From assembly GCA_026329315.1 (NCBI GenBank), contig GCA_026329315.1_4342.1: 43,897 nt of DNA. The stretch is one strand, 5' to 3'. Positions 26,795 through 42,499 of this stretch are shown here, piece after piece. This stretch comes from a phage. The position numbers and the translations under genes are program-made. Each line of letters begins with the position of its first letter. Within the stretch, counting starts at the first letter, position 1. The notes below the pieces were generated by a model that saw only the letters and a list, made by a program, of their open reading frames with translations, did not search any database and was not told where the DNA came from.

Positions 26795-26881
26795 TAGTAT
26801 TTACCCCACAGAAACCCAACCAACAGCCCAATGAAGTAACTAAGACCCACCAGACCGATAACCACCTCGAGACTCATACTC

Positions 26882-27067: not shown

Positions 27068-27356
27068 AGTCGTACACCATCCAGTTATCGAACAGCGGGA
27101 TAGATACCGCGGGGCCGTCGAACGCTAATTCTTCTTCGGTAGCGTAGTAACTTAGTGTCTGCGAACCTTCCTCGTCAAGGAACACTCCCGCGTATGCGCT
27201 GGGTTCCTGCTTCATAACGCCGAGGAGTATACGGAACGCCTCCAGCTGAAACTCACCGTTAATCGACAGTTGCCCGCCTAACGTCTGTTTCTCCGACTCA
27301 AGCACCAGAATACGGCGCTCGAGAGATGCGATTGTGATTTTAGGCATTGGTGTCAC
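27060..27356 (-). CDS. hypothetical small protein
   Basis: ORF in coupled small-gene run. Confidence 0.35.
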   Translation of the reverse strand: MTPMPKITIASLERRILVLESEKQTLGGQLSINGEFQLEAFRILLGVMKQEPSAYAGVFLDEEGSQTLSYYATEEELAFDGPAVSIPLFDNWMVYDYD

Positions 27357-27525
27357 CTTTGTTCAGGTTGAAGCGGTTAATCAGTTCACGGCGCGTCTCG
27401 TAAAGCGACTCGACCATTTGCTCGGCTACCGCGATTTTAGTATTCAGGACGCGCATCACGTGTCCGATGTCTACGCCGCTGTTAACGACCTCAACCATCA
27501 TCTTTTCGTATTCACGGTCGGTCAT
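27340..27525 (-). CDS. hypothetical small protein
   Basis: ATG start; coupled to upstream 52-aa ORF. Confidence 0.35.
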   Translation of the reverse strand: MTDREYEKMMVEVVNSGVDIGHVMRVLNTKIAVAEQMVESLYETRRELINRFNLNKGDTNA

Positions 27526-27680
27526 TCTTTACGCTCTCCCCACATGCGATTGAGATACTTGTTCTTGTCCGGCCCTGGGAAACTGTTACGTTTCATCAGT
27601 TCCTCGCGTGTCGGGAACGGGGTGTGATTGACTTTACGGCCTACTCGTAACGGCTGGCTTACTGGGCCTTGTTCGCTCAT
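27522..27680 (-). CDS. hypothetical small protein (52 aa, below cutoff)
   Basis: AGGAGAGAAGAA RBS; stop overlaps next ATG. Confidence 0.3.
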   Translation of the reverse strand: MSEQGPVSQPLRVGRKVNHTPFPTREELMKRNSFPGPDKNKYLNRMWGERKE

Positions 27681-27826
27681 TTCTTCTCTCCTGCATAAGC
27701 TGCTTTCAGTGCCTGCATCGCGGCGGCCCAGAACGCGTCGGCCGGGATATTACCGCTAAGGTTACCAACGGCGATGCGTGCCATCAGTTGCGCGTCTTCG
27801 AATGCATCGATATCTGTGATTTTCAT
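27677..27826 (-). CDS. hypothetical small protein (49 aa, below cutoff)
   Basis: Stop overlaps next ATG (GAAATGA). Confidence 0.25.
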
Positions 27827-27934
27827 TTCCCAAAAACCCCTTTAGTTTTCAGATTATTGCGATAGAACTGCATCACATGTTCATTATGGAAGTTACTCAT
27901 CTTCTCTACTCCGTTCTCGTTGTCGATGAAGTAA

Positions 27935-27963
27935 ATATAATAGGGTCGAGGATAATAGTCAAC
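27935..27963 (-). promoter_or_regulatory. candidate sigma70 promoter TTGACT-N17-TATATT
   Basis: Read on - strand immediately downstream of the 27994 terminator. Confidence 0.4.
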
Positions 27964-27985
27964 TAGTCATCACAGAAAATAGATA

Positions 27986-28014
27986 AAAAAATCCCGGCTG
28001 GGTCAGGGCCGGGA
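27986..28014 (-). terminator. rho-independent terminator (CCCGGC ... GCCGGG + T7)
   Basis: GC stem followed by seven T on - strand. Confidence 0.55.
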
Positions 28015-28194
28015 GAAACAGAGAGCAGAGGGATGATACAGGAGGTTGGTGGAGCCAGTATGATGCTGCCGTTGTTGGGTGTCAACAGAGATTTCCGGCT
28101 CGCGTTACCGCACATCGGCTCGACCTTGCCACAGGTCCGCGCGGGTGATGATACCCGGAATGCCCGCAATGTTGTTTATCTTCTGTTGACGAAA

Positions 28195-28219
28195 TAAAAC
28201 CCGGATTCGCGGTCCGGGT
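28195..28219 (-). terminator. rho-independent terminator after endolysin (ACCCGGA-N7-TCCGGGT)
   Basis: Stem followed by TTTTAT on - strand, 60 nt after endolysin stop. Confidence 0.5.
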
Positions 28220-28282
28220 TTCAGGGCGGTGCAAGCACAAGCAGCGTAGACATATGTTACTAAACGCCTTCGTATTCGTCCA

Positions 28283-28786
28283 TCATTTTACTGCCCTCCC
28301 GATAGCCTCAGCTTCTTGCCACGGTTTACCGTCGAACAACGCCAGACGACCAGCAACACGGCGGCGGAGGCCCAGCACAGGCCCGAGTTTACCTGTTCTC
28401 GGGTTGCGCTGGTTGATGAACTGACCCATCTTGTGCCGCAAGGTAGGGGTGTCCCCCTGCCGTAGCGCCTTACCGGTTCCGGTATTAGCGGCAATGACAC
28501 CCGTCCCCGCGTTAAACACCAGGTCAACAACAGCATCAAACTGAGCCTGGGTTAGTGATGGGTGTGCCACCTCGTCAACCGCTTTCACGGCCCACTGCAT
28601 ATCACGGTTCAGCAGCAGTAACCCCTGGCCCTCGGTAATCTTCTGGCCTTCGTACACATCTGGCCCGGTATGGCCCCAACCTATGGTCCAGTACTTCTCG
28701 TTCTTTGTTGCTTTGTAAGCAGTTCCGCGAAACTTCTCCCACGCTTTCTTGAACTGCAACCCATTATCTGAAATATTTCGAGACAC
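28283..28786 (-). CDS. endolysin (phage lysozyme, GH24-like)
   Basis: Motif YWTIGWGHTG and E...D...T lysozyme pattern; GTG start at 28786 with GGAGGG RBS (track start 28837 is alternative). Confidence 0.65.
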   Translation of the reverse strand: MSRNISDNGLQFKKAWEKFRGTAYKATKNEKYWTIGWGHTGPDVYEGQKITEGQGLLLLNRDMQWAVKAVDEVAHPSLTQAQFDAVVDLVFNAGTGVIAANTGTGKALRQGDTPTLRHKMGQFINQRNPRTGKLGPVLGLRRRVAGRLALFDGKPWQEAEAIGRAVK

Positions 28787-29036
28787 GCTTATGCCCTCCG
28801 TACGACAGCCACGCCTGACGAATCTGACGCAGCGCAACTAAAGTGATTAATGTCTCAGGTAGCGTAGGTGACATGCTGCCCTGTAACAGGTGGATACATC
28901 CGGCGGCGCAGACAATAGCAGTCAGAATATAAAGCACACGCCCGAACAGGCCATCATCTACGCTGGGGTGGTATACGTTAAACAGCGATGTGCTCCCGAT
29001 TGCGAGCATACCACCAAACCAGAATAACTCATTCAT
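28764..29036 (-). CDS. holin-like / antiholin-like two-TM membrane protein
   Basis: ATG at 29036 with GGAGGT RBS, overlaps holin 3' end; two hydrophobic helices. Confidence 0.4.
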   Translation of the reverse strand: MNELFWFGGMLAIGSTSLFNVYHPSVDDGLFGRVLYILTAIVCAAGCIHLLQGSMSPTLPETLITLVALRQIRQAWLSYGGHKRVSKYFR

Positions 29037-29337
29037 TACCACCTCCGCAACGTGCGATGTATTCTCCGGCGACAATGCCAGAGAGACGGGAATAAATTGG
29101 CATCCAGAGAATAGCAATGATGAATCCAAGGCCCGCTATTTCGCGTTCACCTGCGATACCGAACCATTGAGCGGCGAGAGGCGCACCGAATACGGCGCAC
29201 GCAAAGCCAGTGGCGAGAAAACAGAGAGCATCGACAGGGCCGGTAATAGTGGCTTTGTGTTGCCGTAAGCCTATTACCCCACCAGCTAATGCGGCAGCGA
29301 GAAGCCACCCCGTCGCTGTTTCAGTAAATTTATCCAA
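29029..29337 (-). CDS. holin (three predicted TM helices)
   Basis: 102 aa, three hydrophobic segments; TTG start with GGAGGA RBS lying inside a 7-bp stem hairpin. Confidence 0.5.
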   Translation of the reverse strand: MDKFTETATGWLLAAALAGGVIGLRQHKATITGPVDALCFLATGFACAVFGAPLAAQWFGIAGEREIAGLGFIIAILWMPIYSRLSGIVAGEYIARCGGGNE

Positions 29338-29704
29338 GATGAATCCTCCAGGTGCGTATTAAGTATGCAGTAACTGGAGGATAGCACGGTTATGAATTAT
29401 CTTAATAACGGTTTATTTATGACGCCAGATGTATTGTCGTCTCTGCGGTTTAGTCGGAATATCATCGTATCCGAGCGATTTCCAGTAATTAAATAACCGA
29501 TTAGCGATTGCCGCGCGTTCCTGTGTTTTAAACTCACCCAGATTCACGGCCTTCCGTTCTGGAATCCACAGGCGCGGATAGCTTTACGCCGTTCTTGTAT
29601 CTCTGGGTACAGCACGTTACGGCGACGCTTGTGTATACGTGTCTTCGCTCTCGGTGACAGCGGCGCAAGGCCGCTTCGTTTCAGGATGTCAGTTGCTAAC
29701 GACA

Positions 29705-29893
29705 TCACTCCACCCCCTCCACATGTGTAACCGACCCACAGTTCGCGCACTCGACATAATCAGGGTACTGGTCTTTGTATTTCTGTAACTCAGCTTCAAG
29801 TTTCGCGTAATCTTCGTAAAGCACTAACACGCCCTCAACATCAGGAGTAAACCCGAATATCTGGTCGTAGGTATATCTCTGCACCATAATCAC
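29705..29893 (-). CDS. hypothetical small protein
   Basis: ORF in leftward small-gene run. Confidence 0.3.
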   Translation of the reverse strand: MIMVQRYTYDQIFGFTPDVEGVLVLYEDYAKLEAELQKYKDQYPDYVECANCGSVTHVEGVE

Positions 29894-30093
29894 TTCTCCT
29901 GTTTACCAAGTCTCTTAGGTGAGCAGATAGCGCGTGCCTCTGAATCGATGGGCTTGTCACCCTGAAACAGAAAGTGCGCGTTCTCTGCAGCACGGGCGGC
30001 CGACTGGCACGCCTCCATCGAGTAAAACGTTTCTGATGCTGCCAGGTGCATCTGGCCTGCAGACAGTACCCAGATAAAGAGGATGCTGGTCAT
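29890..30093 (-). CDS. small protein with N-terminal signal-peptide-like segment
   Basis: Hydrophobic N-terminus MTSILFIWVLSAGQMHLAAS; overlapping stop/start. Confidence 0.35.
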   Translation of the reverse strand: MTSILFIWVLSAGQMHLAASETFYSMEACQSAARAAENAHFLFQGDKPIDSEARAICSPKRLGKQEK

Positions 30094-30590
30094 TTCAGTT
30101 TAACCCCGCAATCCAGACACTTTTTAGTAAACCCCGGCGCAAAGCCCTTCCGCAAACCAACGGTATTAGTATGCTGACAATCGTTCAATTCCGCTTCTTG
30201 CTTACCGCATTTAGCGCAAACGAAGTAGTCGCCTTTTTCATCCAGAACCCAATCATGGTCACATTCTTTGCGCACCCCACATTTCTTGTACATCGCACCT
30301 TTATAGAAAACGTACCGATTGTGGGCACACTCCTGAGCATCATCTTTACGGCAACCGGATTGCTCCTGTTCGCGGATAAGTTTGTACGCCTCCGCGTCAC
30401 CCGTAGCTTTAACCAACGCCATATGCAACTCCTTAATCTGCGCCGAAGCATCTCGTAACTGATTCTTAAGTGACTGCACCTCGTGCGCCAGGTCTTCACA
30501 CTGTTGTTTGTATGGGTTGTTAATTACCTGCTGCCGTAGCTGGTCAATAAGGTACTCGAATACTTCGTTTTTGCTACTCACCATCCCCAT
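30090..30590 (-). CDS. coiled-coil plus Cys-rich (zinc-binding-like) protein
   Basis: Multiple CxxC-type pairs (CAKCG, CLDCG) after a coiled-coil N-terminus. Confidence 0.4.
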   Translation of the reverse strand: MGMVSSKNEVFEYLIDQLRQQVINNPYKQQCEDLAHEVQSLKNQLRDASAQIKELHMALVKATGDAEAYKLIREQEQSGCRKDDAQECAHNRYVFYKGAMYKKCGVRKECDHDWVLDEKGDYFVCAKCGKQEAELNDCQHTNTVGLRKGFAPGFTKKCLDCGVKLK

Positions 30591-30786
30591 CCCCTTCCTC
30601 GTTAATTAGTTCGAATTTACCGTTTGAGTGTTGTATAGCTTCTTGCCCGCAATGGTCACAGACAATAAGTTTATCGAACCCATCAAACTCATCCCCCACC
30701 ACGCAAGAAAGTACAAATTTATGGTTAGTGCATACTTCTTGCGGTGCGCCGAAAATTGCGTGAAAACATCTCGCCACTACATTCAT
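30574..30786 (-). CDS. small Cys-rich protein
   Basis: First gene after promoter at 30818-30846; CDHCG motif. Confidence 0.4.
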   Translation of the reverse strand: MNVVARCFHAIFGAPQEVCTNHKFVLSCVVGDEFDGFDKLIVCDHCGQEAIQHSNGKFELINEEGDGDGE

Positions 30787-30817
30787 CTTCTGTCTCTCCT
30801 CTCGTTTGTGTAAATGA

Positions 30818-30846
30818 ATAGTAGCCTATTCTATCCTAGTGTGCAA
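30818..30846 (-). promoter_or_regulatory. sigma70-like promoter TTGCAC-N17-TACTAT with palindrome ATAGGCTACTAT (- strand)
   Basis: Class-2 conserved motif; 32 nt upstream of gene start 30786. Confidence 0.5.
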
Positions 30847-30853
30847 GTAAATT

Positions 30854-31030
30854 TTATTGGTGTTTGGAATGCACGTGACGGCACTTTCTACATTTGTGCA
30901 CAACCTGGTCGCCTAAGTACGAGATTAACTGTACCTGCTCACTGCCGCAGTTGGTGCATTTACGGTAGCTTCGGGCCGCAGCATCTCGCTTTGCAACGAG
31001 CCCCATAAGTTTCTCTGTGAACGTTTCCAT
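30854..31030 (-). CDS. zinc-ribbon protein (58 aa, below cutoff)
   Basis: Two CxxC pairs (CTNCG, CRKC); AGGAG RBS; preferred over overlapping 30925-31158 ORF. Confidence 0.35.
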   Translation of the reverse strand: METFTEKLMGLVAKRDAAARSYRKCTNCGSEQVQLISYLGDQVVHKCRKCRHVHSKHQ

Positions 31031-31154
31031 TGTTGCATCTCCTGCAATAGTCGCTTCGATTGTTGCGTTTGGTGAAATAGAACAAAAATGAGAAAAATGA
31101 TACGCTGCTGTGTAGCAGCGTAAGTCACTCGGTAAAATCCCAAACTATTGAACA

Positions 31155-31340
31155 TCACACTTCCGGTGGCTCAGGTAAGGGCATCCAGTGGGAGATATCG
31201 CCGTGGTATAAACTCTTCGCTGGTCCCCAGTAGCCATCTGAATTAACACGCATAACCTCACAGCCAACAAAACAATCAGTTACAAGAACGTATTCATAAG
31301 GCTCCGGCATCCGCTCACTACACTTAATCCACTCGCTCAT
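31155..31340 (-). CDS. DUF551-like small phage protein
   Basis: Motif WIKCSERMPEPYEYVLV typical of DUF551. Confidence 0.45.
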   Translation of the reverse strand: MSEWIKCSERMPEPYEYVLVTDCFVGCEVMRVNSDGYWGPAKSLYHGDISHWMPLPEPPEV

Positions 31341-31498
31341 AAATCGCCTCTCTTCTCAAATGCGCCAGCCATTACATTCGCACCAGCTTTCCACGCCCGC
31401 CACGCGAGACGCGTCTTAACGTTCAGGTACTCTTTCTTTGAACCCTTGTTAACCGGCAGACCCTCGACGACGGCCCAACGTTCAAATGCTTCTCTCAT
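31338..31498 (-). CDS. hypothetical small protein (53 aa, below cutoff)
   Basis: GGAGGA RBS; stop overlaps next ATG. Confidence 0.3.
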
Positions 31499-31501
31499 AA
31501 A

Positions 31502-31705
31502 TTAGTCCTCCAGAACTTCGCACTCACTGCGTCTAATGAATAGCAGTCCATCATCAGTTTCGACTATAAACCCGTACCCATGCGCTTCCACAACCTCGAA
31601 CACATCACCGACAGCCACACCGAAATGGTAGAGCGGATGGTCGTCATAGGGTGCGGGTTGAAAACTGTTTACCTCTGTTATTCGAATCCTCATACCAACC
31701 CCCAC
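31502..31705 (-). CDS. small protein, paralog of 31754-31990
   Basis: Shared pattern I-x-I-T ... GDVFEV with neighbour. Confidence 0.4.
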   Translation of the reverse strand: MGVGMRIRITEVNSFQPAPYDDHPLYHFGVAVGDVFEVVEAHGYGFIVETDDGLLFIRRSECEVLED

Positions 31706-31753
31706 AACGCGTGCACCGCATAAACGGCGCTGACAATTAAAATGAACGGGTAA

Positions 31754-31990
31754 TTATTCACGGCAACCTCCCTCAGAGTCGTCGGCGCGAGCATCATGAT
31801 TCGATGCCGTTGTGTATATTTGCGCTTCGGCCTTAGTTACCGGGATTGTGTATCTTCCCGTCTTAATCCACCAGCCACCGTTACAGGAATCCAGTACATC
31901 GAAAACATCACCGATATTTACGCCTATGCTCTCCAGAGTATCGTTAGCCGTTTCATAGGTAACGGTGTTATCTGTAATTATGATTTGCAT
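31754..31990 (-). CDS. small protein, paralog of 31502-31705
   Basis: Shared GDVFDV motif; ATG at 31990 in ATGA overlap. Confidence 0.4.
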   Translation of the reverse strand: MQIIITDNTVTYETANDTLESIGVNIGDVFDVLDSCNGGWWIKTGRYTIPVTKAEAQIYTTASNHDARADDSEGGCRE

Positions 31991-32178
31991 CACTTCGCCC
32001 CTTTGAATTTAAAATTGTTGCCGATGAGTTTTAACTCATTAGCTTCGTAATAAACCGAAGAAGTTAATCCGTCCCGCCTGATATAACGGATGATATAAGA
32101 CCCTGGGTATACGACAGACTCTTTTCCGACAACACCAAAGCCATATGCTGTTTTAACCAACTGACCCTTCTTAAACAT
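31990..32178 (-). CDS. hypothetical small protein, first gene of leftward arm
   Basis: ATG at 32178 with GGAGTGAGGG RBS; directly downstream of promoter at 32213-32241. Confidence 0.4.
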   Translation of the reverse strand: MFKKGQLVKTAYGFGVVGKESVVYPGSYIIRYIRRDGLTSSVYYEANELKLIGNNFKFKGAK

Positions 32179-32212
32179 AACCCTCACTCCTCTGTCTCGT
32201 TTCGATAGGTGA

Positions 32213-32241
32213 ATAGTATCCTATTATGTTGGGGTGTGCAA
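32213..32241 (-). promoter_or_regulatory. sigma70-like promoter TTGCAC-N17-TACTAT with palindrome ATAGGATACTAT (- strand)
   Basis: Class-2 conserved motif at the head of the leftward arm. Confidence 0.5.
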
Positions 32242-32677
32242 GAGAATAGTTACGTTGCCGTTGTGATTCTTTCGTTTCTTAAAAGAGTACGCAACGCAGT
32301 GGGTGGGCGTTAGCCCACCCCAGCGGAGTGAAGTACTCCCTACCTTACTTACGGCAACTATAGAAACTTTTAATTATCAGTGGCTTAAGAGATATGCTGC
32401 CGATGAGAATAGAGCTTGCCCAGGGCAACCGGGGATACTTACGAAGGAAAGTTAAGATAATTCATATGTTCAGTAATCTGCCGCTTAACACTTCGCTGGC
32501 GCTGGTGCGCCGCTGCGTTTCAAGCGGGTATTACAAGGTGAACAGGAATCAAAGTAACTAAGATATAGAAGCACCTTAAACGAAGATTTTCATAATGTCA
32601 ATATGTGCAATTATGTTTTATTTCCCATTATTCGCAATGTATACTTGGTTTCGTTAACTGATAATGGGGGTTTGAGA

Positions 32678-33136: not shown

Positions 33137-35404
33137 ATGTCCGATGTAATTTTATCCTACTCGTGGTCACGCCGCAACGCGCGGGCGGGGAAAAAGGATA
33201 TAAATGTCAGAACCGCACACACGGCAACACTGGACGACCTGAAAGAGTTAATCCAGCCGCTCGATGCCGTTCGTGACGGGATTAACCCGAAGACAGCGCC
33301 AGGCTATATTACTGCCGCGTGCGACTCTGCGCACAGCACTGTAAAAGACCCGGAAACCGGTGACTTTAAGCAAGCGCGTAAAGGCTTCTTTTATCGCTGC
33401 GATGCGTCTGTAAGCAAATCGTCGCTGGCGTATCTTGACTTCGACAGTGCAACACCGGAAGAGTACCAGGAAGCGGTGCGCCTGGTTAAGCGCAGCCGTC
33501 AGGTTATGTGCCTGTATACCACGGCATCACATACTGATGAGTCACCGCGCTTTCGCGTCGTCATGCCGCTGAGCCGCCCGGTTGAAGGCGGCGACATCAT
33601 CCGTGTTCGTCATGGCTTGCTGGAGCACTTCTTCGAAGGCATGGGCGCTGACCGCAGCGGGTTCACTCTGTCCCAGCCTATGTACCTGCCGCCGGTTGGC
33701 TCTACCGTTATCTGGTCGCGTCGCAACGACCTGATTGACCCGGACGAGTTACTGGAAGGCATACCGGATTACGAGGTGAGCAGCGCATCGGATTACCAGA
33801 TACCGGAAGAACTGCGCTCCGCGTTTACTGATGCGTTCGAAGCGCTGGCGTTCGAGTACGGCGGAGTTATGACCCCACGCGGCCTTAAGATGCCAGCTAC
33901 ACCGGAACACGCTGAAAACTACAGTGACCCGACACCGCGCCCGGACGACTTCCTGCTGTGCTTCCCGCGCGAGGGGTATGAAGCGCCAAACGTAACCATG
34001 ATTCACGACACAGACATTACGGCGACAGAAGGCCTGTCACCGAAAGAGGTGTGGAAGTACGCGTGCGATGCGACCGGGCTGCCGTTCAGTGAAGTCGCAG
34101 AGGCCATCGGTTGGGGGGCGCGTGAATCTGTCTCATGCAGCCTCGACGACCTGGAAGACGACGAGGACTCAGAGGAGGACGAGTTACCGGAGCCGGTAAA
34201 GGCTGATTTCGTCGTTGAGGGGTACATGCCGTCGGATTGTATCTGGGGTATCGTCGGAGAATCGGGCACGTACAAATCATTCTATACGCTGGGGATGATG
34301 TACCTGAGCGCCGCCGGATACCGGTTTGCAGGGGCTGACACCCAGCGTTGTCACCATTTCTATATCGACGGCGAGGGTGGGGCAGCCACACGTACACGTA
34401 TTGATGCGCTCGCGGCTAAATACGGCGAGGAAGGTAAAGATTATGTACACGTCATCGATATGGGCGAAGTCGGCAAACTTAAAAGCCTGATTAAGTTAAT
34501 GCGCGAAACTGCTGGCGACGAGCCAATTGGCATGGTTGCGTTCGACACCCTTAACCAGACCCTGGCACTGACGATTGATAAGTTCGACGAGAACAGTTCA
34601 TCAACAGCAATCGGCATGGGTAAAGTTATCGCCATTCTGAAAGAAGTACGCGATGCAACTAAAGCCGCAGTAGGCGTTGTCCACCATACGCCGAAGGGTG
34701 GAAAGAAAGCACGCGGCAGTGGGGCGCTGTATGCGGGTGTTGACGTGGAACTGACAATCGAACGTGCAACCGACCGTCAGATAAACGTATATCACTCGAA
34801 ATTCAAGCACGGGCCTCAGCAGAAGACGGTTGGCATGGTGCTGGAGTCGGTACAGTTCCGTGAAGCGCCGCCGCCTAAAGAATACCGAGCGGTTGAGTTC
34901 CTGGGTAGCACAGAGGAATACGGCACAATCGTAAACCTGGACCTGCCTGAACCACACAAGGCGCTTGTGTTGATGCCGTGGGGTTTCGAGCCGTTCAAAA
35001 CTGACGATGAGAAAGAGCGGGAAGAAGGGTTGACGAAAGAAGGTAAAGAAAATGTACGTAAAACCGTAGAGAACGCCGTCAACAGTTCGGAGGCCACGAT
35101 ACTCGCGGCGTTTGAACTGGCGGAAGGAACCTACAACGGCAACGAAGGCATCACAGTCGCCGCGGCGAATAAGCTCGCACAGTCAGACCCCAACGCAAAG
35201 GCGTTTAACTCCAAAGAAGCCATAGAACGCGGGAAGATTAAGAAAATGGTTGAGGCCGGGTATCTTGTTCCGGGTACTGACGAAAACAATCAGATAATCC
35301 CAGGTCGTTACAGGCTGAACACCAGAATAACTGATAACAAGATTCCAAAGACAATATACGAACCGAATGAAATGTTGACAGTGACAGAGGAGGATTTGGA
35401 ATGA
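33137..35404 (+). CDS. DNA primase (AEP/prim-pol-like N-terminus) fused to RecA-like P-loop ATPase (primase-helicase)
   Basis: N-terminal LDFD and ASH motifs; C-terminal Walker A GESGTYKS and HHTPKGG region. Confidence 0.55.
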   Translation: MSDVILSYSWSRRNARAGKKDINVRTAHTATLDDLKELIQPLDAVRDGINPKTAPGYITAACDSAHSTVKDPETGDFKQARKGFFYRCDASVSKSSLAYLDFDSATPEEYQEAVRLVKRSRQVMCLYTTASHTDESPRFRVVMPLSRPVEGGDIIRVRHGLLEHFFEGMGADRSGFTLSQPMYLPPVGSTVIWSRRNDLIDPDELLEGIPDYEVSSASDYQIPEELRSAFTDAFEALAFEYGGVMTPRGLKMPATPEHAENYSDPTPRPDDFLLCFPREGYEAPNVTMIHDTDITATEGLSPKEVWKYACDATGLPFSEVAEAIGWGARESVSCSLDDLEDDEDSEEDELPEPVKADFVVEGYMPSDCIWGIVGESGTYKSFYTLGMMYLSAAGYRFAGADTQRCHHFYIDGEGGAATRTRIDALAAKYGEEGKDYVHVIDMGEVGKLKSLIKLMRETAGDEPIGMVAFDTLNQTLALTIDKFDENSSSTAIGMGKVIAILKEVRDATKAAVGVVHHTPKGGKKARGSGALYAGVDVELTIERATDRQINVYHSKFKHGPQQKTVGMVLESVQFREAPPPKEYRAVEFLGSTEEYGTIVNLDLPEPHKALVLMPWGFEPFKTDDEKEREEGLTKEGKENVRKTVENAVNSSEATILAAFELAEGTYNGNEGITVAAANKLAQSDPNAKAFNSKEAIERGKIKKMVEAGYLVPGTDENNQIIPGRYRLNTRITDNKIPKTIYEPNEMLTVTEEDLE

Positions 35405-35598
35405 GCGGTAAATTTAAAGAAGTAAGCGACGAACTGAAAGGTAATAAATACACCAACCACAGAGGCGAAGTAGTAGAAGTTCTTAACGTAGTTCCTTATG
35501 GGCGCGGGTATCATGTTGTGTTCAGTTACACAGAGGCTTACAGCGTGTACTGTGGGTTAGGTAAGTTTCGCAAAAGATACCCGATAAAGGTGCAATAA
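35401..35598 (+). CDS. hypothetical small protein
   Basis: ATGA overlap with primase stop. Confidence 0.35.
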   Translation: MSGKFKEVSDELKGNKYTNHRGEVVEVLNVVPYGRGYHVVFSYTEAYSVYCGLGKFRKRYPIKVQ

Positions 35599-35611
35599 AA
35601 AGAAAGGGGCG

Positions 35612-35827
35612 TCAAGCCCCTTCACCGAACGCCAGCCACTTAGCGTCTACTTCCAGCACTTCCGCCAGTTTAAACAACGTTGCCGGGCGGACGTCCTGAG
35701 TTACACCGAGAGCCAGCTGGTTAATTGCGCTCTGGGAAACGCCGGTCAGGATCGCCAGACGGCGCTGGGAGATGCCGAGTTCTTTACGGCGTTGCTCTAC
35801 ACGGATGCCTAGTTCGGATGGTTGCAT
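35612..35827 (-). CDS. XRE-family HTH transcriptional regulator (Cro/CI-like)
   Basis: RRKELGISQRRLAILTGVSQSAINQL is a canonical XRE HTH; AAGGAG RBS; terminator hairpin at its 3' end. Confidence 0.7.
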   Translation of the reverse strand: MQPSELGIRVEQRRKELGISQRRLAILTGVSQSAINQLALGVTQDVRPATLFKLAEVLEVDAKWLAFGEGA

Positions 35828-35858
35828 GTCAATTACTCCTTAGTCAGTTGATGTGTGA

Positions 35859-35887
35859 ATAGTACCATATTAATTATTTTAGAAAAA
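35859..35887 (-). promoter_or_regulatory. candidate promoter of the XRE regulator, -10 TACTAT inside imperfect palindrome ATAGTACCATAT
   Basis: -10 present but -35 weak (TTTTTC). Confidence 0.35.
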
Positions 35888-35892
35888 GCCCA

Positions 35893-35921
35893 TTGACAAG
35901 TGAATAGTTCGCTATTATAGT
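35893..35921 (+). promoter_or_regulatory. strong sigma70 promoter TTGACA-N17-TATAGT with palindrome ATAGTTCGCTAT in spacer
   Basis: Consensus -35, 17-bp spacer, 5/6 -10; 33 nt upstream of first ORF. Confidence 0.65.
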
Positions 35922-35953
35922 TAGCCCATACCAAACGAGAGGAGAGAAGCAAA

Positions 35954-36103
35954 ATGACCAATAACCGCAAAGCAAAGATTCTGTTAGGCCTTGATATCGC
36001 ATTTGGGGCTAAAGAAACCGCACGATACCGCGTAAGCAACAATCGTGTTGGCTTCTTCGACAAAGCAACAGGCCAGTTAGTTAAAACCGTTAAATATAAA
36101 TAA
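35954..36103 (+). CDS. small basic protein (49 aa, below cutoff), first gene after promoter
   Basis: GAGGAGAG RBS 7 nt upstream of ATG. Confidence 0.4.
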   Translation: MTNNRKAKILLGLDIAFGAKETARYRVSNNRVGFFDKATGQLVKTVKYK

Positions 36104-36118
36104 ACAGGAGAGAAACAA

Positions 36119-36619
36119 ATGTTAGAGAAATTCTTAGTATTACTGGAACGTTTCGTAGTTGCACATGAACTGATTGCCGCAAATAGCGTGAAACAAGTTG
36201 TTCAGGCTTCCGCACCGCTGGAAGTAGAGACGGTAGTGTATGCCAAAGAAGCGGTAGCAGAGTGCGCCGAAGAAAAAGCAAAAGAAATCCCGGTCGAAGG
36301 TGAAGACATCGTTGACGCTAAACCAGCAGAAGAAGAGAAGCCGAAACGCAAGCCGCGTAAAGCTAAAGTAGAGGAGCCGACTCCAGAACCAGAAGAAGAG
36401 AAAGAAGAGGTCGATTACCAGTCTCTTCGTGACCAGATTCAGGCTATCGACGATGCAATTAACGAAGGTCCTAGCGATGCTGCGTGCGACGATTCCGATG
36501 AACTGCTGGAGGAGTTCACCGGTAAGAAAATGAAGATTGCCGCGATTAAAGACGAAGACCTGGCTGAATACCTGAAACGCCTGACGGCGATTAAGAACAA
36601 GTATTTCGAAGAAGAATAA
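36119..36619 (+). CDS. highly acidic early protein
   Basis: AGGAGAG RBS; long E/D-rich stretches with short basic patch. Confidence 0.5.
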   Translation: MLEKFLVLLERFVVAHELIAANSVKQVVQASAPLEVETVVYAKEAVAECAEEKAKEIPVEGEDIVDAKPAEEEKPKRKPRKAKVEEPTPEPEEEKEEVDYQSLRDQIQAIDDAINEGPSDAACDDSDELLEEFTGKKMKIAAIKDEDLAEYLKRLTAIKNKYFEEE

Positions 36620-36661
36620 CTATCCCGCGGCCTTCTGGCCGCTTTAACAGAGGGTCGTAAT

Positions 36662-36934
36662 ATGATTTACCAACTCTACCGAGGTATTGACCGACGGGAT
36701 AACACGGAGGCTCTATGGCTATTGCGCGCTCCTTCCGGTGCGCACCAGATGGAAGAGATGGCGTACTTATGCAAAGTACCCAGGCCCAAAGATATAGGCC
36801 GTCACGTGTCGCAGATTAAGCGCACGACTTTTGCCAAGCCTGACTTTTATGTCTTCGAGTCGATGTATAGCTGGGCCATGCACTGCCAGCACCAGACACG
36901 ACATTTAATTGACCAGTGGGAGAACAGGGTATGA
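36662..36934 (+). CDS. hypothetical protein
   Basis: AGAGGG RBS. Confidence 0.4.
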   Translation: MIYQLYRGIDRRDNTEALWLLRAPSGAHQMEEMAYLCKVPRPKDIGRHVSQIKRTTFAKPDFYVFESMYSWAMHCQHQTRHLIDQWENRV

Positions 36935-37278
36935 CCGATAAATGGTGGCTTAATCTGCGTAGTGGCGACAAGGTTTACACAGTCGGCGACCGCAGAAAGA
37001 GCAGCGGCGTAGCTACTGTGTTACAAAACGGCAAAAAGTACATTCACATTGTGCATGAAGCTCGTGCGCTCCGCGTGAATAAATCGTCTGGCAGGCTTGA
37101 GGATTACCCGAAAACATTAATATATAAAAGTGAAAAGCATCACATGGACGCTGTTGACGCAAGACGTCAGTTCGCAGGAATGTTGCAACAGTTAAGCGAC
37201 TTACATCGCGATGATTCTTTCATTCCTACAGAAGAACAGTTACAGGCATTAAACTTGTATTTGGAGAGTTTACGATGA
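36931..37278 (+). CDS. hypothetical protein
   Basis: ATG at 36931 with GGGAGAACAGGG RBS and ATGA overlap. Confidence 0.4.
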   Translation: MTDKWWLNLRSGDKVYTVGDRRKSSGVATVLQNGKKYIHIVHEARALRVNKSSGRLEDYPKTLIYKSEKHHMDAVDARRQFAGMLQQLSDLHRDDSFIPTEEQLQALNLYLESLR

Positions 37279-38516
37279 TTCTTAAAGAACGCGGCGGCAA
37301 TAACGATGTACATGCCTTACTGTCGCCGTCAGGGGCTAAAAAGTGGCTAAGTTGCGCGGCATCACTGGCCTGTGAAAAAGATATCCCTAACACGTCAGGT
37401 AAAGCCGCTGTATTAGGCACGGCAATGCACACCATAGCTGAGGTCCATCTCAACGCTTATATTCGCGGAACTGCGCTGCCGTTAGAGCGTGAAGTCGGTG
37501 CTTACGTGCTGGATGAAGGCAAAGGCCAGATTAAGGCACTAATCAGCCCGATGAAAGGCGCGGTACTGATTACGGCGGACATGATTGAGCAGGTGCGCAA
37601 GTACACCGACTACTGCAAGGCGATTATCGATATAGCGACTTACGCCAAGCTGGAAATGCGTGTTAATCTTACTGAGGTATTGCATCCGGGGTATGAAGGC
37701 GTTGAGACGTTCGGAACTGCTGACCTTGTTGCCATACAGGAACTGGCTAACACCGACGAACACATGCTTATCATCTGCGACCTGAAAACCGGGCGGCATC
37801 GTGTCGAAGCGAAAGAAAACAAGCAGCTTATGCTTTATGCTCTCGGCGTTTATCGCCGACTCAAGAGACGTTATAGCATAACAACCGTTCGACTGGTCAT
37901 CTTCCAGCCGTACGCTGGCGGTGCATCGGAGTGGGACATCTCGGTTGAAGGTCTGGAACTGTTCGCTAAGTTTGCACAGAAACGGGCGCTGTTGGCTCTT
38001 GATGCCTATTTCCGGGGTAAAAAGAACCTGAAAGCGTCGGACTTCAAGCCGTCGGTAGATGGTTGTCAGTGGTGTCGGTTCTCTGAACAATGCGCAGCGC
38101 GTACAAAAACCGTTAACGCGGGGCTGGCGGAAGAACTGGAGGACGACTTTGCACTTGAGCTTACGCCAGAGCAACTCGTAGCTGAGTATGAGAAGTTGCC
38201 GTTGTTGCGCCAGCACATCGACAAGGTTGAGAAAGCTATGGCTGCTGCGTTACATTCCGGTAAGAAAGTGCCGGGGTATAAACTGGTTGAAGGACGCCCG
38301 GGTAATCGTGCGTGGAAAGATACCGATGCAGTATTCGAGAAGTACGGTACTATGCTGCAAAAGGTAGTTCTTATGACACCGACCGAAGCGGTTAAAATTG
38401 TACCGGAAGAAGAACTGAAAGACTTCATTACCCGTAAGCCCGGTGCGCCATGCGTCGCAACGGCGGATGACAAACGTCCTGAGTGGAATCAAGTTACAGA
38501 GGAGGATTTAGAATGA
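37275..38516 (+). CDS. PD-(D/E)XK exonuclease with Cys cluster (Cas4/RecB-like)
   Basis: ICDLKTG ... E.K motif; N-terminal Cys and C-terminal CxxC...C (DGCQWCRFSEQC). Confidence 0.6.
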   Translation: MILKERGGNNDVHALLSPSGAKKWLSCAASLACEKDIPNTSGKAAVLGTAMHTIAEVHLNAYIRGTALPLEREVGAYVLDEGKGQIKALISPMKGAVLITADMIEQVRKYTDYCKAIIDIATYAKLEMRVNLTEVLHPGYEGVETFGTADLVAIQELANTDEHMLIICDLKTGRHRVEAKENKQLMLYALGVYRRLKRRYSITTVRLVIFQPYAGGASEWDISVEGLELFAKFAQKRALLALDAYFRGKKNLKASDFKPSVDGCQWCRFSEQCAARTKTVNAGLAEELEDDFALELTPEQLVAEYEKLPLLRQHIDKVEKAMAAALHSGKKVPGYKLVEGRPGNRAWKDTDAVFEKYGTMLQKVVLMTPTEAVKIVPEEELKDFITRKPGAPCVATADDKRPEWNQVTEEDLE

Positions 38517-38716
38517 TTCAAGTAAATGAAATGCCGACTGATAAAGATTTTTTGATGGTATGGCACTGGGATGGGTATCTACACTCGGAATCGTTCACGT
38601 TCTTGAACGGTACCATGATGCGATACTACCCTGTAGAGGATGAGTTCGAACCGGCCAATATGCTTAATTTCGAGAACATAATCCCTATTGCAAAATTTTA
38701 TTTGACACCTGAATAG
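38513..38716 (+). CDS. hypothetical small protein
   Basis: GAGGAGGA RBS, ATGA overlap. Confidence 0.4.
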   Translation: MIQVNEMPTDKDFLMVWHWDGYLHSESFTFLNGTMMRYYPVEDEFEPANMLNFENIIPIAKFYLTPE

Positions 38717-38730
38717 TTAGCTATTATAGT
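38702..38730 (+). promoter_or_regulatory. strong sigma70 promoter TTGACA-N17-TATAGT with palindrome ATAGTTAGCTAT
   Basis: Same architecture as the 35893 promoter; upstream of SSB-like gene. Confidence 0.6.
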
Positions 38731-38798
38731 TCTAATCACTGGCCGGGCAGCTTCCCGGAGTAAACTTTGAAATATAAACTGAAAAGCGAGAAATCACG

Positions 38799-39422
38799 AT
38801 GGGTATTAAACTGAATCTGCGTAAAGTAAACACTGCATGGGTTAACGTATTTGAACGTGAAAAAGACCGTGAAAACGATGATGGCTCAATCACTAAAGGC
38901 CAGTACAGCGCGACTATCATCCTGCCGTCTGACCATGCTCAAATCGATGCACTCTACGACACCGTTTACGCTGTAGTTGAAGAAGCGTTAGGCGCAGCCG
39001 CTGCCGAGAAATGGATGAAGTCCAACTACGGTGAAGGTAAGCACATGGATAAATGCGCGATTAAAGACATTGCCGAGCGCGACAATCCGTTTGAAGACTT
39101 CCCGGAAGGCTTCTACTTCAAAGCGAAGGCACAGAAACAACCGCTGATTGTAACCTCTAAAAAAGGCGAGACTCAGGTAGAGCAGGACTTCAATGTAGAC
39201 GGTGAACAGATTGAAGGTGAACAGGTTTACAGCGGCTGCGTTGCTAACGTAAGCGTAGAAATCTGGTTCAGCCAGAAATATAAAGTCCTCGGCGTTAACC
39301 TGCTGGCGATTAAATACGTAGGCGAAGGTAAAGCGTTCGGTGGTTCTAAAGTAGCTGCAAGCGTCGATGACCTGGAAGACGACGAAGAAGACGCACCGCG
39401 TCGCGAACGTCGCCGCCGTTAA
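38799..39422 (+). CDS. putative ssDNA-binding protein with acidic C-terminal tail
   Basis: Position between nuclease and polymerase; C-terminal DDLEDDEEDA tail. Confidence 0.45.
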   Translation: MGIKLNLRKVNTAWVNVFEREKDRENDDGSITKGQYSATIILPSDHAQIDALYDTVYAVVEEALGAAAAEKWMKSNYGEGKHMDKCAIKDIAERDNPFEDFPEGFYFKAKAQKQPLIVTSKKGETQVEQDFNVDGEQIEGEQVYSGCVANVSVEIWFSQKYKVLGVNLLAIKYVGEGKAFGGSKVAASVDDLEDDEEDAPRRERRRR

Positions 39423-39481
39423 TTTCTGAATCAATTTAACTAAGACCCTTCATTGGGCCTTTTTACTAAGGGTCGAAAATA

Positions 39482-39760
39482 ATGGCAGCGGAACTTAAGA
39501 GATACAGACGCATCACATACTGCAAATTTTGTAAGGCAGAAGGTAAAAAAGTTAGAGCAATTTGGATGACTAAATACCCTCCAGCTTACGGTGTACGAGA
39601 CTGGTATAAACACTATGCATGCGAGGAGCATAAACATTTAATAGAAGACACAGACCCAGACCGGACTTGGGCAGAAATCATAGAACGCGGTAAAAACAAG
39701 AAACAAGATCGCGACGACCATCTCACAGAAGCAGACTATCAGACGTGGTACAGACTATGA
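39482..39760 (+). CDS. small Cys/His-rich protein
   Basis: CKFC ... C..H pattern; upstream of polymerase. Confidence 0.35.
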   Translation: MAAELKRYRRITYCKFCKAEGKKVRAIWMTKYPPAYGVRDWYKHYACEEHKHLIEDTDPDRTWAEIIERGKNKKQDRDDHLTEADYQTWYRL

Positions 39761-42009
39761 ACACATTGCTTTACTTAGACTTTGAAACATTCTCCGAAGC
39801 CGATTTGAAGAAAGTCGGCTCCTATGCTTACGCCGAGCATCCAACTACCGAAGTGCTTATCTGTACCTACGCTTTTGACGACGAGCCTGTACAGGTATGG
39901 TATTGCACCGACGGCAGTGATATGCCCGTGGATTTACACCGCGCTCTACGCCGTCTGGTTAAGCCAAACAGTCGCATTAAGATGGTATGGCACAACGGTG
40001 GACTTTTCGATCGCCTAATCATGAAACACTGCTGGGGCTTTGATATTCCGGTAAGTAACACCATTGATACTATGATTTGGGCGTTCCGTCACGCGCTGCC
40101 GGGTTCTCTTGATGCGCTGTGCGAAGTGCTGGGCGTGTCTGCAGACAACGCGAAAGATAAACGCGGCAAGGCTCTGATTAAGCGTTTCTCTAAACCGACG
40201 CCGAAGAACTACAAAATCCGCCGATATACCGCTGAAACGCACCCTGACGAGTGGGCGATGTTCATCAGGTACGCCGTGAGCGACATCACTGCGATGCGTG
40301 AAGTCTTCCATAAGCTGCCGCGTTGGGGTAACTCCGAGTTCGAAGACCGTGTACTGGAACTTGACCAGTTAATCAACGACCGCGGATTTAAGGTTGACGT
40401 CGCACTGGCGGAAGCCGCGATTGAAGCCGTAGAGAAGCACAAGGCACAGTTACAGGAAGAAGCTCAACGTAAATACGGCGGCTCGCTTACCGGTAAGGAC
40501 TTTCTGCCTATTCTACGTGAACTGGCCCCCGCACACCGCATACACAACGCACAGAAGTCGACGCTGAATGACCTGCTGGCCGATGATGATTTACCTGACG
40601 ACGCCCGCACGATTATCGAAATGCGCCTCGGGGCCGCGTCAACAGCGTCCACGAAATATAACCCGCTGCTGTTAGGCCGCTCGTCGGACGACCGACGCCG
40701 CGGTTGTATCCAGTACGGTGGGGCAAAGCGTACGTTACGGTTCGCGGGTAAAGGCTTCCAGCCACAGAACCTGGCGCGCGGGTACTATCATGACGACCCG
40801 AAGAATAAAAAGAAGAAAGTACGTTATGACTGGATGTCAGAGAAGGACTGGTGGAGAGTAACACACCCATTGTCCTACGGAATCGACCTGTTGTTTAAAG
40901 GCCGCGCGCATCGCCGTTTCGATGTAGCCAAGCTAACGGCATCGACGGTGCGTAGCTGCATCATACCGGAAGCCGGGCGTAAGTTTGTCGTAGCTGATTA
41001 CTCTAACGTTGAAGGTCGCGGGTTGGCATGGCTGGCGGGAGAAGAAACCGCTCTCGATACCTTCCGTGCGGGATTGGATATTTACTGTGTAACCGCGGGT
41101 AAGATGTTCGGCATGGACCCTGATTACATTCTCGAAAGCCGTAGTGACCTACGCCAGATAGGTAAAGCATGTGAATTGGGCCTTGGCTATGCTGGTGGTG
41201 TCGGTGCTTTCGTTCAGTTTGCTAAGAACCTCGGCTTAAACCTGGTTGATATGGCAAAAACAATGGACGGGACATTCCCCAACCATATATGGGCCGCTAC
41301 TGCACGCGGCTATGAATGGGCACGTATTCAGGAAGCCAAGCGACCTCCGCGGCCAGGTGAAAAGGATGACCGACCATCGTATATTCTTGATAAGAAAGTG
41401 TGGCGTACCTGCGACGCTATCAAGCGCATGTGGCGTGAGTCACACCCGGAAACAGTAGCTTTCTGGCGTGATATTGAAGACGCGGCTATGGCGGCTATCC
41501 GCAATCCAGGTAAAGAGTTCACTGCGGGACCGCGGGGTGTTAAGTTTTCGCGTAACGTAGAAACGGACAACAACGGCAACAAAGTCGCTGGTTGGTGGTT
41601 GCGCATGACGTTGCCGTCGGGTCGCGTTATGTCTTATCCGGGCGTCGGGTTGAGCGTGTCGAAAGAAACAGATGGAGACGGGAAGGTGTCTACTAACGTG
41701 CGCATTAAGTACCAGGGCGAAAATCAGCTAACCCGTCAGTGGGGGTTCCAGTACACCTACTCGGGTAAACTGGTGGAAAACTGCACTCAGGCATTGTGCC
41801 GTGATTTGCTGGCTAATGCCCTGCTGAACGTAGAAGCAAACGGCTACCCGATTGTACTTCACGTACACGATGAGATTATCTGCGAGACACCAGATTCACC
41901 GGAATACAATGTAGCAGAGCTTGAGCGGTTGATGTGCGAATTGCCGGAATGGGCGGAGGGGTTCCCTCTTGTAGCTGAAGGTGCGGAGATGAAGCGATAT
42001 GCCAAGTAA
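39757..42009 (+). CDS. family A DNA polymerase with 3'-5' exonuclease domain
   Basis: Exo motif LDFETFS; pol motif A DYSNVEGR; motif C HDEI; start at ATG 39757 coupled to upstream stop. Confidence 0.75.
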   Translation: MNTLLYLDFETFSEADLKKVGSYAYAEHPTTEVLICTYAFDDEPVQVWYCTDGSDMPVDLHRALRRLVKPNSRIKMVWHNGGLFDRLIMKHCWGFDIPVSNTIDTMIWAFRHALPGSLDALCEVLGVSADNAKDKRGKALIKRFSKPTPKNYKIRRYTAETHPDEWAMFIRYAVSDITAMREVFHKLPRWGNSEFEDRVLELDQLINDRGFKVDVALAEAAIEAVEKHKAQLQEEAQRKYGGSLTGKDFLPILRELAPAHRIHNAQKSTLNDLLADDDLPDDARTIIEMRLGAASTASTKYNPLLLGRSSDDRRRGCIQYGGAKRTLRFAGKGFQPQNLARGYYHDDPKNKKKKVRYDWMSEKDWWRVTHPLSYGIDLLFKGRAHRRFDVAKLTASTVRSCIIPEAGRKFVVADYSNVEGRGLAWLAGEETALDTFRAGLDIYCVTAGKMFGMDPDYILESRSDLRQIGKACELGLGYAGGVGAFVQFAKNLGLNLVDMAKTMDGTFPNHIWAATARGYEWARIQEAKRPPRPGEKDDRPSYILDKKVWRTCDAIKRMWRESHPETVAFWRDIEDAAMAAIRNPGKEFTAGPRGVKFSRNVETDNNGNKVAGWWLRMTLPSGRVMSYPGVGLSVSKETDGDGKVSTNVRIKYQGENQLTRQWGFQYTYSGKLVENCTQALCRDLLANALLNVEANGYPIVLHVHDEIICETPDSPEYNVAELERLMCELPEWAEGFPLVAEGAEMKRYAK

Positions 42010-42130
42010 ACTGATTATTGCGGTACTGGCGGGATTCGCCGCCGGTGTCTACTGTCACGAGGGTCAATACGGCATGATGGTTGCCGTATTAGGTATGTTA
42101 GTAACAATTTATCTGTGGGTGCTGGAATGA
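41999..42130 (+). CDS. small membrane protein (43 aa, below cutoff)
   Basis: Hydrophobic; ATGA overlap with next ORF. Confidence 0.25.
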   Translation: MPSKLIIAVLAGFAAGVYCHEGQYGMMVAVLGMLVTIYLWVLE

Positions 42131-42225
42131 AAATTTACTGGTTCTACGAAGAAGACCGCCGGATCTGTCCGCGCTGTGGTATTGCGCATACGAAACGTGA
42201 GGGGTGTGTGGATGAGTACGCCTGA
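42127..42225 (+). CDS. zinc-ribbon peptide (32 aa, below cutoff)
   Basis: CPRCG ... C motif; overlaps VRR-NUC start. Confidence 0.25.
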   Translation: MKIYWFYEEDRRICPRCGIAHTKREGCVDEYA

Positions 42226-42499
42226 GGGCAAAATACAGAAATACGCAAAAGACCGATTCGAGGCCATTGGTGGCCTCGTTCGTAAACTTTCCTACGAAGG
42301 ACGTTCCGGCGCCCCTGACCTGCTGGTAATTCTCCCCGGCGGCGTCATCTGGTTCGTCGAGATAAAGAAAGACGAAAGCACGAAGCCGGATCCACACCAG
42401 TTACGGGAGCACGAGCGGATGCGTAAGCGTGGTGCTAATGTTTTTGTCGTTGGTTCGTTTAAACAGGTTGACGCCCTAATAGCGAACTATTATAGTTAG
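42212..42499 (+). CDS. VRR-NUC domain nuclease
   Basis: GAPDLL ... VEIK motif; GAGGGG RBS. Confidence 0.6.
   Translation: MSTPEGKIQKYAKDRFEAIGGLVRKLSYEGRSGAPDLLVILPGGVIWFVEIKKDESTKPDPHQLREHERMRKRGANVFVVGSFKQVDALIANYYS
42468..42496 (+). promoter_or_regulatory. sigma70 promoter TTGACG-N17-TATAGT with palindrome ATAGCGAACTAT
   Basis: Same architecture as the 35893 and 38702 promoters; lies in 3' end of VRR-NUC gene. Confidence 0.55.

Follow-up and report, generated by a model that had tools for sequence, protein, structure and literature searches.

The operators of phage 434 (OR1-3 and OL1-3) are 14-bp dyads with a variable centre, and the stoperators of the temperate mycobacteriophages L5 and Bxb1 are asymmetric 13-bp sites that are oriented with transcription and lie mostly off promoters. 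Here we describe a 14-bp dyad, AATAG-N4-CTATT, in a phage contig of 43,897 nt (GCA_026329315.1_4342.1; this whole stretch of DNA is called the window), which its sequence matches identify as a Kagunavirus (Guernseyvirinae), a virulent siphovirus of Escherichia coli. We propose, with a probability of about 0.6, that the dyad is the operator of the phage's own 71-residue, 434-Cro-like HTH_3 (XRE) repressor and that its copies form a genome-wide set. There are several parallels with 434 Cro: the HTH_3 protein likewise has 71 aa and is predicted to adopt an HTH_3 fold of five helices, its best match in both sequence and fold is 434 Cro, the outer arms of the 14-bp dyad are conserved and its centre varies, the dyad lies over promoter core elements, and the regulator gene adjoins operators. 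Unlike the 434 system, the half-site is AATAG instead of ACAA, there is no CI partner, no three-site OR/OL array and no lysogeny module, and single operators, for which binding is predicted, are distributed in three registers over some 11 promoters in a virulent phage.

Region 34000-42000 of the window is 99.3% identical to Escherichia phages BEU33 and BEU35 and matches 453 phage records, nearly all of them Kagunavirus or Jerseyvirus (Guernseyvirinae). Four annotated genomes were used for comparison, Golestan (L001), K1G (L002), the Jerseyvirus AG11 (L003) and the Cornellvirus VSiA (L004), whose records all run in the orientation opposite to the window. The first-pass annotation had described three promoters of the architecture TTGAC(A/G)-N17-TATAGT, and a search of the genome returned exactly three matches to it, all on the + strand (P_A1 to P_A3, class A; Table 1), against 0.01 expected; three matches were reached in 0 of 100 dinucleotide-preserving shuffles. 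These sites are also the top sigma-70-type matches of the genome, with scores of 11, 11 and 10 of 12. The palindrome ATAG-N4-CTAT, said to abut the -10 hexamer, does so at all three, ending one base ahead of it; the conserved unit is the 14-bp dyad AATAG-N4-CTATT, whose final T doubles as the opening T of TATAGT.

With at most one mismatch, the dyad occurs at 11 sites in the genome (seven perfect, four with one mismatch) against 0.98 expected, a number reached in 0 of 100 shuffles; eight of the sites lie beyond class A (starting at 11419, 20790, 20881, 22684, 27954, 30817, 32212 and 35858). In an unbiased count of all 5-N(2-8)-5 palindromes, AATAG-N4-CTATT was the commonest, with seven exact copies and three for the runner-up. 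It also came first when all 5-N4-5 half-sites were ranked with one mismatch allowed (11 copies; the best of the shuffled genomes never exceeded 8), and it likewise heads this ranking in Jerseyvirus AG11, with nine copies. The dyads lie almost entirely within the approximately 9% of the genome outside open reading frames (ORFs), and 10 of the 11 overlie predicted promoter hexamers, with both strands represented. As with the L5 and Bxb1 stoperators, one phage repressor would thus face many sites across the genome; in contrast to them, the sites are symmetric and positioned over promoter hexamers.

Three registers were found. In class A, the dyad lies in the spacer and abuts the -10 (operator centre approximately -18.5); in the four class B promoters, and likewise in the similarly built promoter of the regulator itself, the -10 TACTAT lies within the right arm (centre approximately -12.5); and in class C, which comprises two promoters, the -35 TTGACT lies within the dyad (centre approximately -33.5). 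The operators are single, symmetric sites, with no tandem OR/OL triplets. The occurrence of the dyad in three registers relative to the hexamers points to a separate binding site rather than to an element contacted by the polymerase. The number of operator sites differs between genomes, as Golestan has an additional perfect dyad at 38971-38984 and fBC-Eco01 carries two identical 20-mers with the dyad element (PP1 and PP2; PMC9825357, Table S2).

Two Kagunavirus papers have already published the repeat. In the fBC-Eco01 paper, it is a PHIRE repeat with the consensus tgAATAGTa-ccTATTat-T, present in seven copies and assigned to a phage RNA polymerase (PMC9825357), and in the Golestan paper the same repeat is given as a conserved promoter, also in seven copies (PMC7203180); the dyad symmetry, the three registers and the link to an HTH_3 protein are absent from both. 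The annotation of Golestan, K1G, AG11 and VSiA (52-78 features each) contains no gene for an RNA polymerase, an integrase or CI, and the published attribution to a phage polymerase therefore cannot hold; we also rejected promoters of this kind for the symmetry of the dyad, its three registers and its lack of a fixed orientation.

Orthologous A1, A2 and A3 promoters were recovered from about 50 relatives, with the downstream genes rather than the motif as anchors, and were aligned on the -10. In the resulting 67 unique sequences, the arms of the dyad carry 1.8-2.0 bits of information, the centre N4 0.46-0.86 and the four upstream nucleotides 0.55-1.2. Insertions of a single base are confined to the stretch that separates the -35 from the dyad, which keeps the dyad against the -10. 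The orthologous P_A1 site was found in 30 relatives, and its arms are invariant in 27 of the 27 distinct sequences listed. At P_A2, the promoter and the dyad are retained while the sequence upstream of them is a mosaic that differs between relatives, with no fewer than six unrelated contexts; in the GenBank record of AG11, this orthologue is labelled as an RpoD promoter. At P_A3, which lies in coding sequence, the orthologues keep the Leu codon xTA, the rare Ile codon ATA and TAT TAT, and the third-base C of the next codon is fixed while the amino acid varies (N, S, D, G, H, R), a pattern that shows the DNA rather than the protein to be constrained. When 2.9 million viral contigs were scanned for exact matches to TTGAC-N5-AATAG-N4-CTATTATA, 68 stretches were obtained, and Guernseyvirinae contigs of 41-45 kb account for essentially all of them.

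AATAG dyads are absent from Cornellvirus, as judged from the half-site ranking and the comparison with VSiA. In their place, ATTAG-N4-RTAWT (including ATTAG-N4-GTATT) is present at six promoter sites in the same registers, against 0.23 expected, an expectation that is optimistic as the pattern was defined post hoc. The orthologue of P_A1 reads TTGCAy-N5-ATTAGyTTAGTATT-ATAGT in four contigs, and a class-C-like site reads AATATTTGACTAAT. These sites speak against a Cornellvirus devoid of any dyad network. Both arms of the dyad thus appear to have changed in concert while the register was kept, which supports its reading as an operator. A motif search over the genome, as the first-pass annotation had suggested, recovered the dyad at 11 sites, and its arms are kept in the gene-anchored orthologous promoters of about 50 relatives; the view that an operator overlaps the promoters gains comparative support from the invariant arms with their variable centre, the DNA-level constraint within a coding region and the concerted change in Cornellvirus.

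It is possible to read the same elements as a phage promoter module without a dedicated regulator, whose sequence tunes the sigma-70 polymerase (through the spacer or an extended -10) or whose copies have been homogenised by recombination. Such a module would agree with the listing of the same 20-mers as conserved 'phage promoters' in both Kagunavirus papers (PMC9825357, PMC7203180), with the identical block of about 33 bp common to the class B copies, which suggests duplication, and with the doubling of half of the dyad as the -10 (TACTAT) in class B. However, contacts of the polymerase need no dyad symmetry and the dyad lies in three different registers; recent copying does not predict arms that stay invariant while centre and flanks diverge between genera, and both arms are altered together in Cornellvirus. 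We consider this explanation decidedly unlikely.

Only three recognisable DNA-binding candidates were found, the HTH_3 protein, an HTH_17 (AlpA/excisionase-like) protein and a weakly matching NinH-like protein, and most of the small early proteins have no recognisable domain. The HTH_3 protein matches Pfam HTH_3 above the gathering score (E 5.7e-12), as well as HTH_19 and HTH_31. Its best solved relative in a phmmer search against the Protein Data Bank (PDB) is 434 Cro, also of 71 aa (E 1.6e-6, residues 6-68 versus 4-64), and the AlphaFold2 model (pLDDT 81) has five helices, with 2cro as the top Foldseek PDB match (TM 0.73/0.79, 38% identity). The gene is located between two dyads, one of them on its own promoter, and is present in all three genera that have the dyad network; a search of E. 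coli genomes with the XRE region gave no match. The imperfect operator on its own promoter is conserved in all Kagunavirus orthologues, and AG11 keeps the half-site at the -10 with the other arm degenerate. A 76-aa ORF on the - strand (35833-36063), which covers both operators and both promoters of the intergenic region between the XRE gene and P_A1, is almost certainly spurious. A perfect TATAAT on the strand opposite to the class A promoters was rejected as the promoter of the XRE gene, as it has neither an in-register -35 nor a TG and the nearer TACTAT fits better.

A search with an alignment of XRE proteins returned temperate-phage homologues of about 42% identity that are full CI repressors (helix-turn-helix (HTH) domain and S24 peptidase), related to the cI of Pseudomonas phage D3 and of 933W/phi24B (loci L058-L060 and L062). 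At L058 and L059, three tandem 5-N4-5 dyads lie directly 5' of the CI-type gene, and a TTGAC promoter downstream carries another two, of which one occupies the spacer next to the -10 and the other covers the -35; 5-N4-5 dyads are also present upstream of the CI-type gene at L060 and L062. The half-sites at these loci are ATTAG-N4-CTAAT, ATAAG-N4-CTTAT and also AATAG, suggesting that this HTH subfamily uses operators of the form A[AT][AT]AG-N4-CT[AT][AT]T. The D3-, 933W- and phi24B-type CI loci hence resemble the present one in the HTH domain, in the 5-N4-5 operators and in the spacer and -35 registers (L058, L059), but their products are temperate-phage repressors of full length that are capable of autocleavage and have cooperative sites in tandem, whereas a Cro-sized protein of a lytic phage is found here.

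Another protein might nevertheless read the dyad, be it the HTH_17 protein, the NinH-like protein (26391-26651), an unrecognised small early protein, for which the many early proteins devoid of a recognisable domain leave room, or a host regulator. The HTH_17 protein is 80% identical between Kagunavirus and Jerseyvirus, two genera with an identical dyad, and the XRE protein only 52%; its homologues occur only in contigs that bear AATAG dyads, with none outside the subfamily except one weak partial match on a short contig, and its operon adjoins the class B4 element. HTH_17 was first favoured because Cornellvirus, which lacks it, also lacks AATAG dyads. Yet Cornellvirus, with the XRE but not the HTH_17 protein, has an altered dyad in unchanged geometry, which favours XRE, and the CI homologues of the XRE protein adjoin dyads of exactly this type. 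Moreover, a 14-bp dyad suits a 434-Cro-like dimer better than it does a MerR/Xis-type protein, which here has about 56-81 residues and lacks a dimerisation domain. We know of no host regulator with a matching consensus; TrpR (ACTAG), ArgR (TGAAT-N8-ATTCA), Fur and SlyA were considered and do not fit. A reader other than the HTH_3 protein is unlikely in our view, and between the two binders named in the first-pass annotation, the XRE and the AlpA-like protein, the former is better supported by its fold, the operators of its CI homologues and its phyletic pattern.

The spacer position of the class A dyads also brings to mind the loading site of a processive antiterminator of the Q/AlpA type, like the lambda Q-binding element or the AlpA-binding element (ABE) of P. 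aeruginosa, both located between the two promoter hexamers. The ABE occupies -25 to -20 of a promoter spacer (PMC9371919), and an 'AlpA-like' HTH gene is present in the window. The ABE, however, comprises 6 bp, is asymmetric and binds a single monomer, and AlpA requires an N-terminal ring segment and has contact residues up to H142 (PMC9371919), whereas the HTH_17 protein has at most 81 aa and matches HTH-type models only. The dyad is symmetric and occurs in three registers, and a terminator scan found no terminator just 3' of A1-A3. We regard a loading site as highly improbable. A third half-site (CTAT-T-ATAG, formed with TATAGT) was considered at class A and rejected, as the A2 and A3 orthologues in Jerseyvirus AG11 read TATATT and it is not conserved.

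Returning to the HTH_3 protein as the reader, the analysis establishes the motif, its statistics and positions, its selective conservation, the concerted change in Cornellvirus and the protein family; that this protein is the binder, that binding represses and in what temporal order are inferred. The protein would be an early product of a weak promoter that bears an imperfect operator, and a dimer would, by analogy with 434 Cro, bind each 14-bp dyad at about -18.5, -12.5 or -33.5 and occlude the host RNA polymerase; since the dyads overlap core elements of sigma-70-type promoters, their occupancy should block the polymerase. As the protein accumulates, the replication and early promoters with perfect operators may be turned down first, then those with imperfect ones, and its own promoter last. 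The first-pass annotation had proposed a single DNA-binding protein for three rightward units. One phage regulator as the probable reader agrees with this, but the scope was too narrow, as about 11 promoter regions on both strands and in three registers bear the dyad, including the regulator's own promoter, those of leftward units of small genes and those ahead of the head and terminase genes.

Several points weigh against this proposal. If one repressor covers nearly all promoters, including those ahead of the head and terminase genes, the escape of the late genes is unexplained. The dyad-bearing promoters are themselves predicted, and a literature search found no binding, footprint, transcription-start or expression results for any Guernseyvirinae phage; a search for transcriptomes of these phages was likewise negative. 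Between Kagunavirus and Jerseyvirus, identity of the XRE proteins is no more than 52-54% and the recognition helices are different (SQSAINQ versus SQSLITH) while the dyads of the two genera are identical, no clean residue-to-base code was found when recognition helices and half-sites were compared across homologues, and the conservation of the HTH_17 protein across the two genera that share AATAG exceeds that of XRE. The post hoc definition of the Cornellvirus pattern belongs here as well.

In a more far-reaching scheme, all transcription in a strictly virulent subfamily would be governed by one Cro-sized protein, left over as the Cro half from a lysogeny switch since lost. It would act through operators of graded perfection in three registers, with the class B elements as early-to-late switches. 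At these, promoters would stand back to back with adjoining -35 elements (TTGCAC on one strand, TTGGGG on the other), and the protein would shut the early promoter and free or activate the opposite one, which would drive the tail operon at B1 and the primase operon at B4. The operator centre lies near -44.5 of the back-to-back candidates (near -42.5 in Jerseyvirus). At B1, where it is at approximately -44.5, the TAGAAT of the candidate is kept in K1G, Golestan and VSiA, and AG11 has TGCTATTCT. The promoter opposite B1 is a candidate and that opposite B4 a weak candidate, both predicted from the hexamers, and the scheme as a whole is doubtful.

Comparison with other known regulators sets the limits of the analogy. 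Unlike in the lambdoid CI/Cro immunity switch, there is no annotated CI (S24) or integrase in the four related genomes and the operators are single, so that the locus would correspond to the Cro arm alone and falls outside the CI/Cro switch class; the genome papers on fBC-Eco01 (PMC9825357) and Golestan (PMC7203180) report no lysogeny genes. The proposed role resembles the turn-down of PL and PR by lambda Cro in lytic growth, in that a small early repressor would lower early transcription and its own synthesis, but lambda Cro has a different fold and acts at only two operator clusters. The controller proteins of restriction-modification systems such as C.AhdI and C.BclI, which appear among the fold matches, are also small HTH_3 dimers with dyads overlapping promoters; theirs are paired C-boxes at one promoter that mediate activation and then repression, with no genome-wide sites.

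A repressor that occludes promoters is a textbook mechanism, and what would be unusual is its genome-wide spread in a virulent phage. If the proposal holds, it defines a concrete and testable circuit of the Guernseyvirinae with one protein, one 14-bp site and about 11 promoters, and it corrects the published reading of the repeat as promoters of a phage RNA polymerase. A virulent lineage would then have kept only the Cro arm of a lambdoid switch and spread its operator across the genome. To the Guernseyvirinae belong Salmonella and E. coli phages, in the hundreds, with actual or suggested uses in biocontrol and therapy, and a host or plasmid expressing the 71-aa protein could resist all Kagunaviruses and Jerseyviruses that share the operator, which would bear on cocktail design and on routes to resistance.

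Table 1. Predicted promoters, putative operators and candidate regulator genes in the window.
Feature	Position	Strand	Promoter sequence	Putative operator	Remarks
P_A1	35893-35921	+	TTGACAAGTGAATAGTTCGCTATTATAGT; exact TTGACR-N17-TATAGT; -35 TTGACA 35893-35898; -10 TATAGT 35916-35921	AATAGTTCGCTATT 35903-35916	
P_A2	38702-38730	+	TTGACACCTGAATAGTTAGCTATTATAGT; exact TTGACR-N17-TATAGT; -10 38725-38730	AATAGTTAGCTATT 38712-38725	
P_A3	42468-42496	+	TTGACGCCCTAATAGCGAACTATTATAGT; exact TTGACR-N17-TATAGT; -35 TTGACG	AATAGCGAACTATT 42478-42491	inside final codons of ORF 42176-42499
B1	11403-11431	+	TTGCAC-N17-TACTAT	11419-11432	superinfection-immunity, exonuclease and PNK genes from 11447
B2	20865-20893	+	TTGCAC-N17-TACTAT	20881-20894	small gene at 20921
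B3	30818-30846	-	TTGCAC-N17-TACTAT	30817-30830	gene starting at 30786; surrounding genes all on the - strand
B4	32213-32241	-	TTGCAC-N17-TACTAT	32212-32225, over -10	leftward small genes starting at 32187
C1	27934-27962	-	TTGACT-N17-TATATT	ACTAGTTGACTATT 27967->27954, one mismatch, over -35	directly after a terminator
C2	20770-20798	-	TTGACT-N17-TAAGCT	AATAGTTGACTTTT 20803->20790, one mismatch, over -35	
Dyad without promoter assignment	22684-22697			TATAGTATGCTATT (- strand), one mismatch	between portal terminator and head-morphogenesis gene
Candidate back-to-back promoter of B1	11388-11415	-	TTGGGG-N16-(TGC)TAGAAT, extended -10		toward tail-assembly-chaperone operon
Candidate back-to-back promoter of B4	32229-32256	+	TTGGGG-N16-TACGTT		toward HTH_17 and primase-helicase operon
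HTH_3 (XRE) gene, 71 aa	35612-35827	-			divergent from P_A1; terminator 35623-35603
Promoter of the HTH_3 gene		-	-10 TACTAT 35864->35859; weak -35 TTTTTC 35887->35882	AATAGTACCATATT 35858-35871, imperfect, over -10	
HTH_17 (AlpA/excisionase-like) gene, at most 81 aa	32603-32848	+			Pfam HTH_17 E 5.3e-7; domain matches HTH-type models only

Downstream of P_A1, the unit begins at the ATG at 35954 and extends through the exonuclease gene, and P_A2 lies 5' of the genes for a DUF2815 SSB-like protein and the DNA polymerase. The first of these two genes has a 69-nt leader with a hairpin (CCGGG-cagctt-CCCGG, 38743-38758) that is kept even in Cornellvirus, where the promoter dyad differs, and that could be a translational or stability operator. 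The class B elements were also considered as class-A-like promoters on the same strand with the -35 missing, and this was rejected, as the opposite strand reads TTGCAC-N17-TACTAT with a ribosome-binding site and start codon 15-30 nt further on; the -7 T of the would-be forward -10 is lost in some relatives (TATGTC, TATATC). The direction given in Table 1 rests on the 17-bp spacing, the ribosome-binding site and start codon 15-30 nt downstream, the leader AAACGAGAGGAG that class B shares with A1 and C1, and the all-minus gene context of B3. In this direction, TACTAT is followed by the leader ACACCAAACGAGAGGAG, which is the same as that of A1. A leader motif, (A/C)AACGAGA(G)GAG, is present between the -10 and the start codon at A1 (35930-35950), B3 (30787-30812), B4 (32188-32208) and C1 (27905-27925), and also in Jerseyvirus, which suggests promoter-leader cassettes at mosaic junctions.

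C1 is followed by small genes and then by the terminase and portal genes, and is conserved in Golestan, K1G and AG11. C2 precedes the genes for Rz, the scaffold and the major head protein, and its GC-rich leader of about 225 nt (20546-20769, - strand), which extends up to these genes, has similar sequence in AG11 and VSiA and no match to an Rfam family. No convincing promoter was identified at the dyad at 22684, whose counterpart is the PHIRE 'promoter' before ORF3 in the Golestan paper (PMC7203180). A match to the Rfam int-alpA RNA (RF02996; 11320-11384, - strand; 36.6 bits versus a gathering score of 35.8) falls in the leader that separates the predicted TGCTAGAAT promoter from the tail-assembly-chaperone gene, which starts at 11295, and a similar leader is present in AG11 and VSiA.

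The early region (26114-32187 and 11447-11665) contains lambdoid nin-type genes (NinH-like, DUF2737, DUF551) as well as genes for a superinfection-immunity protein and for Cro-like and AlpA-like proteins, and the joint presence of these genes is consistent with descent of the module from a temperate ancestor. Between the B4 element and the HTH_17 gene lies a non-coding stretch of about 350 nt (32257-32600) that includes a GC-rich hairpin around 32303-32330. The homologous stretch of AG11 (35465-36010 of its record) has a TTGACA-N17-TAAGTT promoter directed through it, and in VSiA, G-rich GGGGGAGA repeats and two copies of GTGAATAGTTAT lie beside the primase gene (37000-37300 of its record). 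The non-coding stretch could be a replication origin or encode a non-coding RNA.

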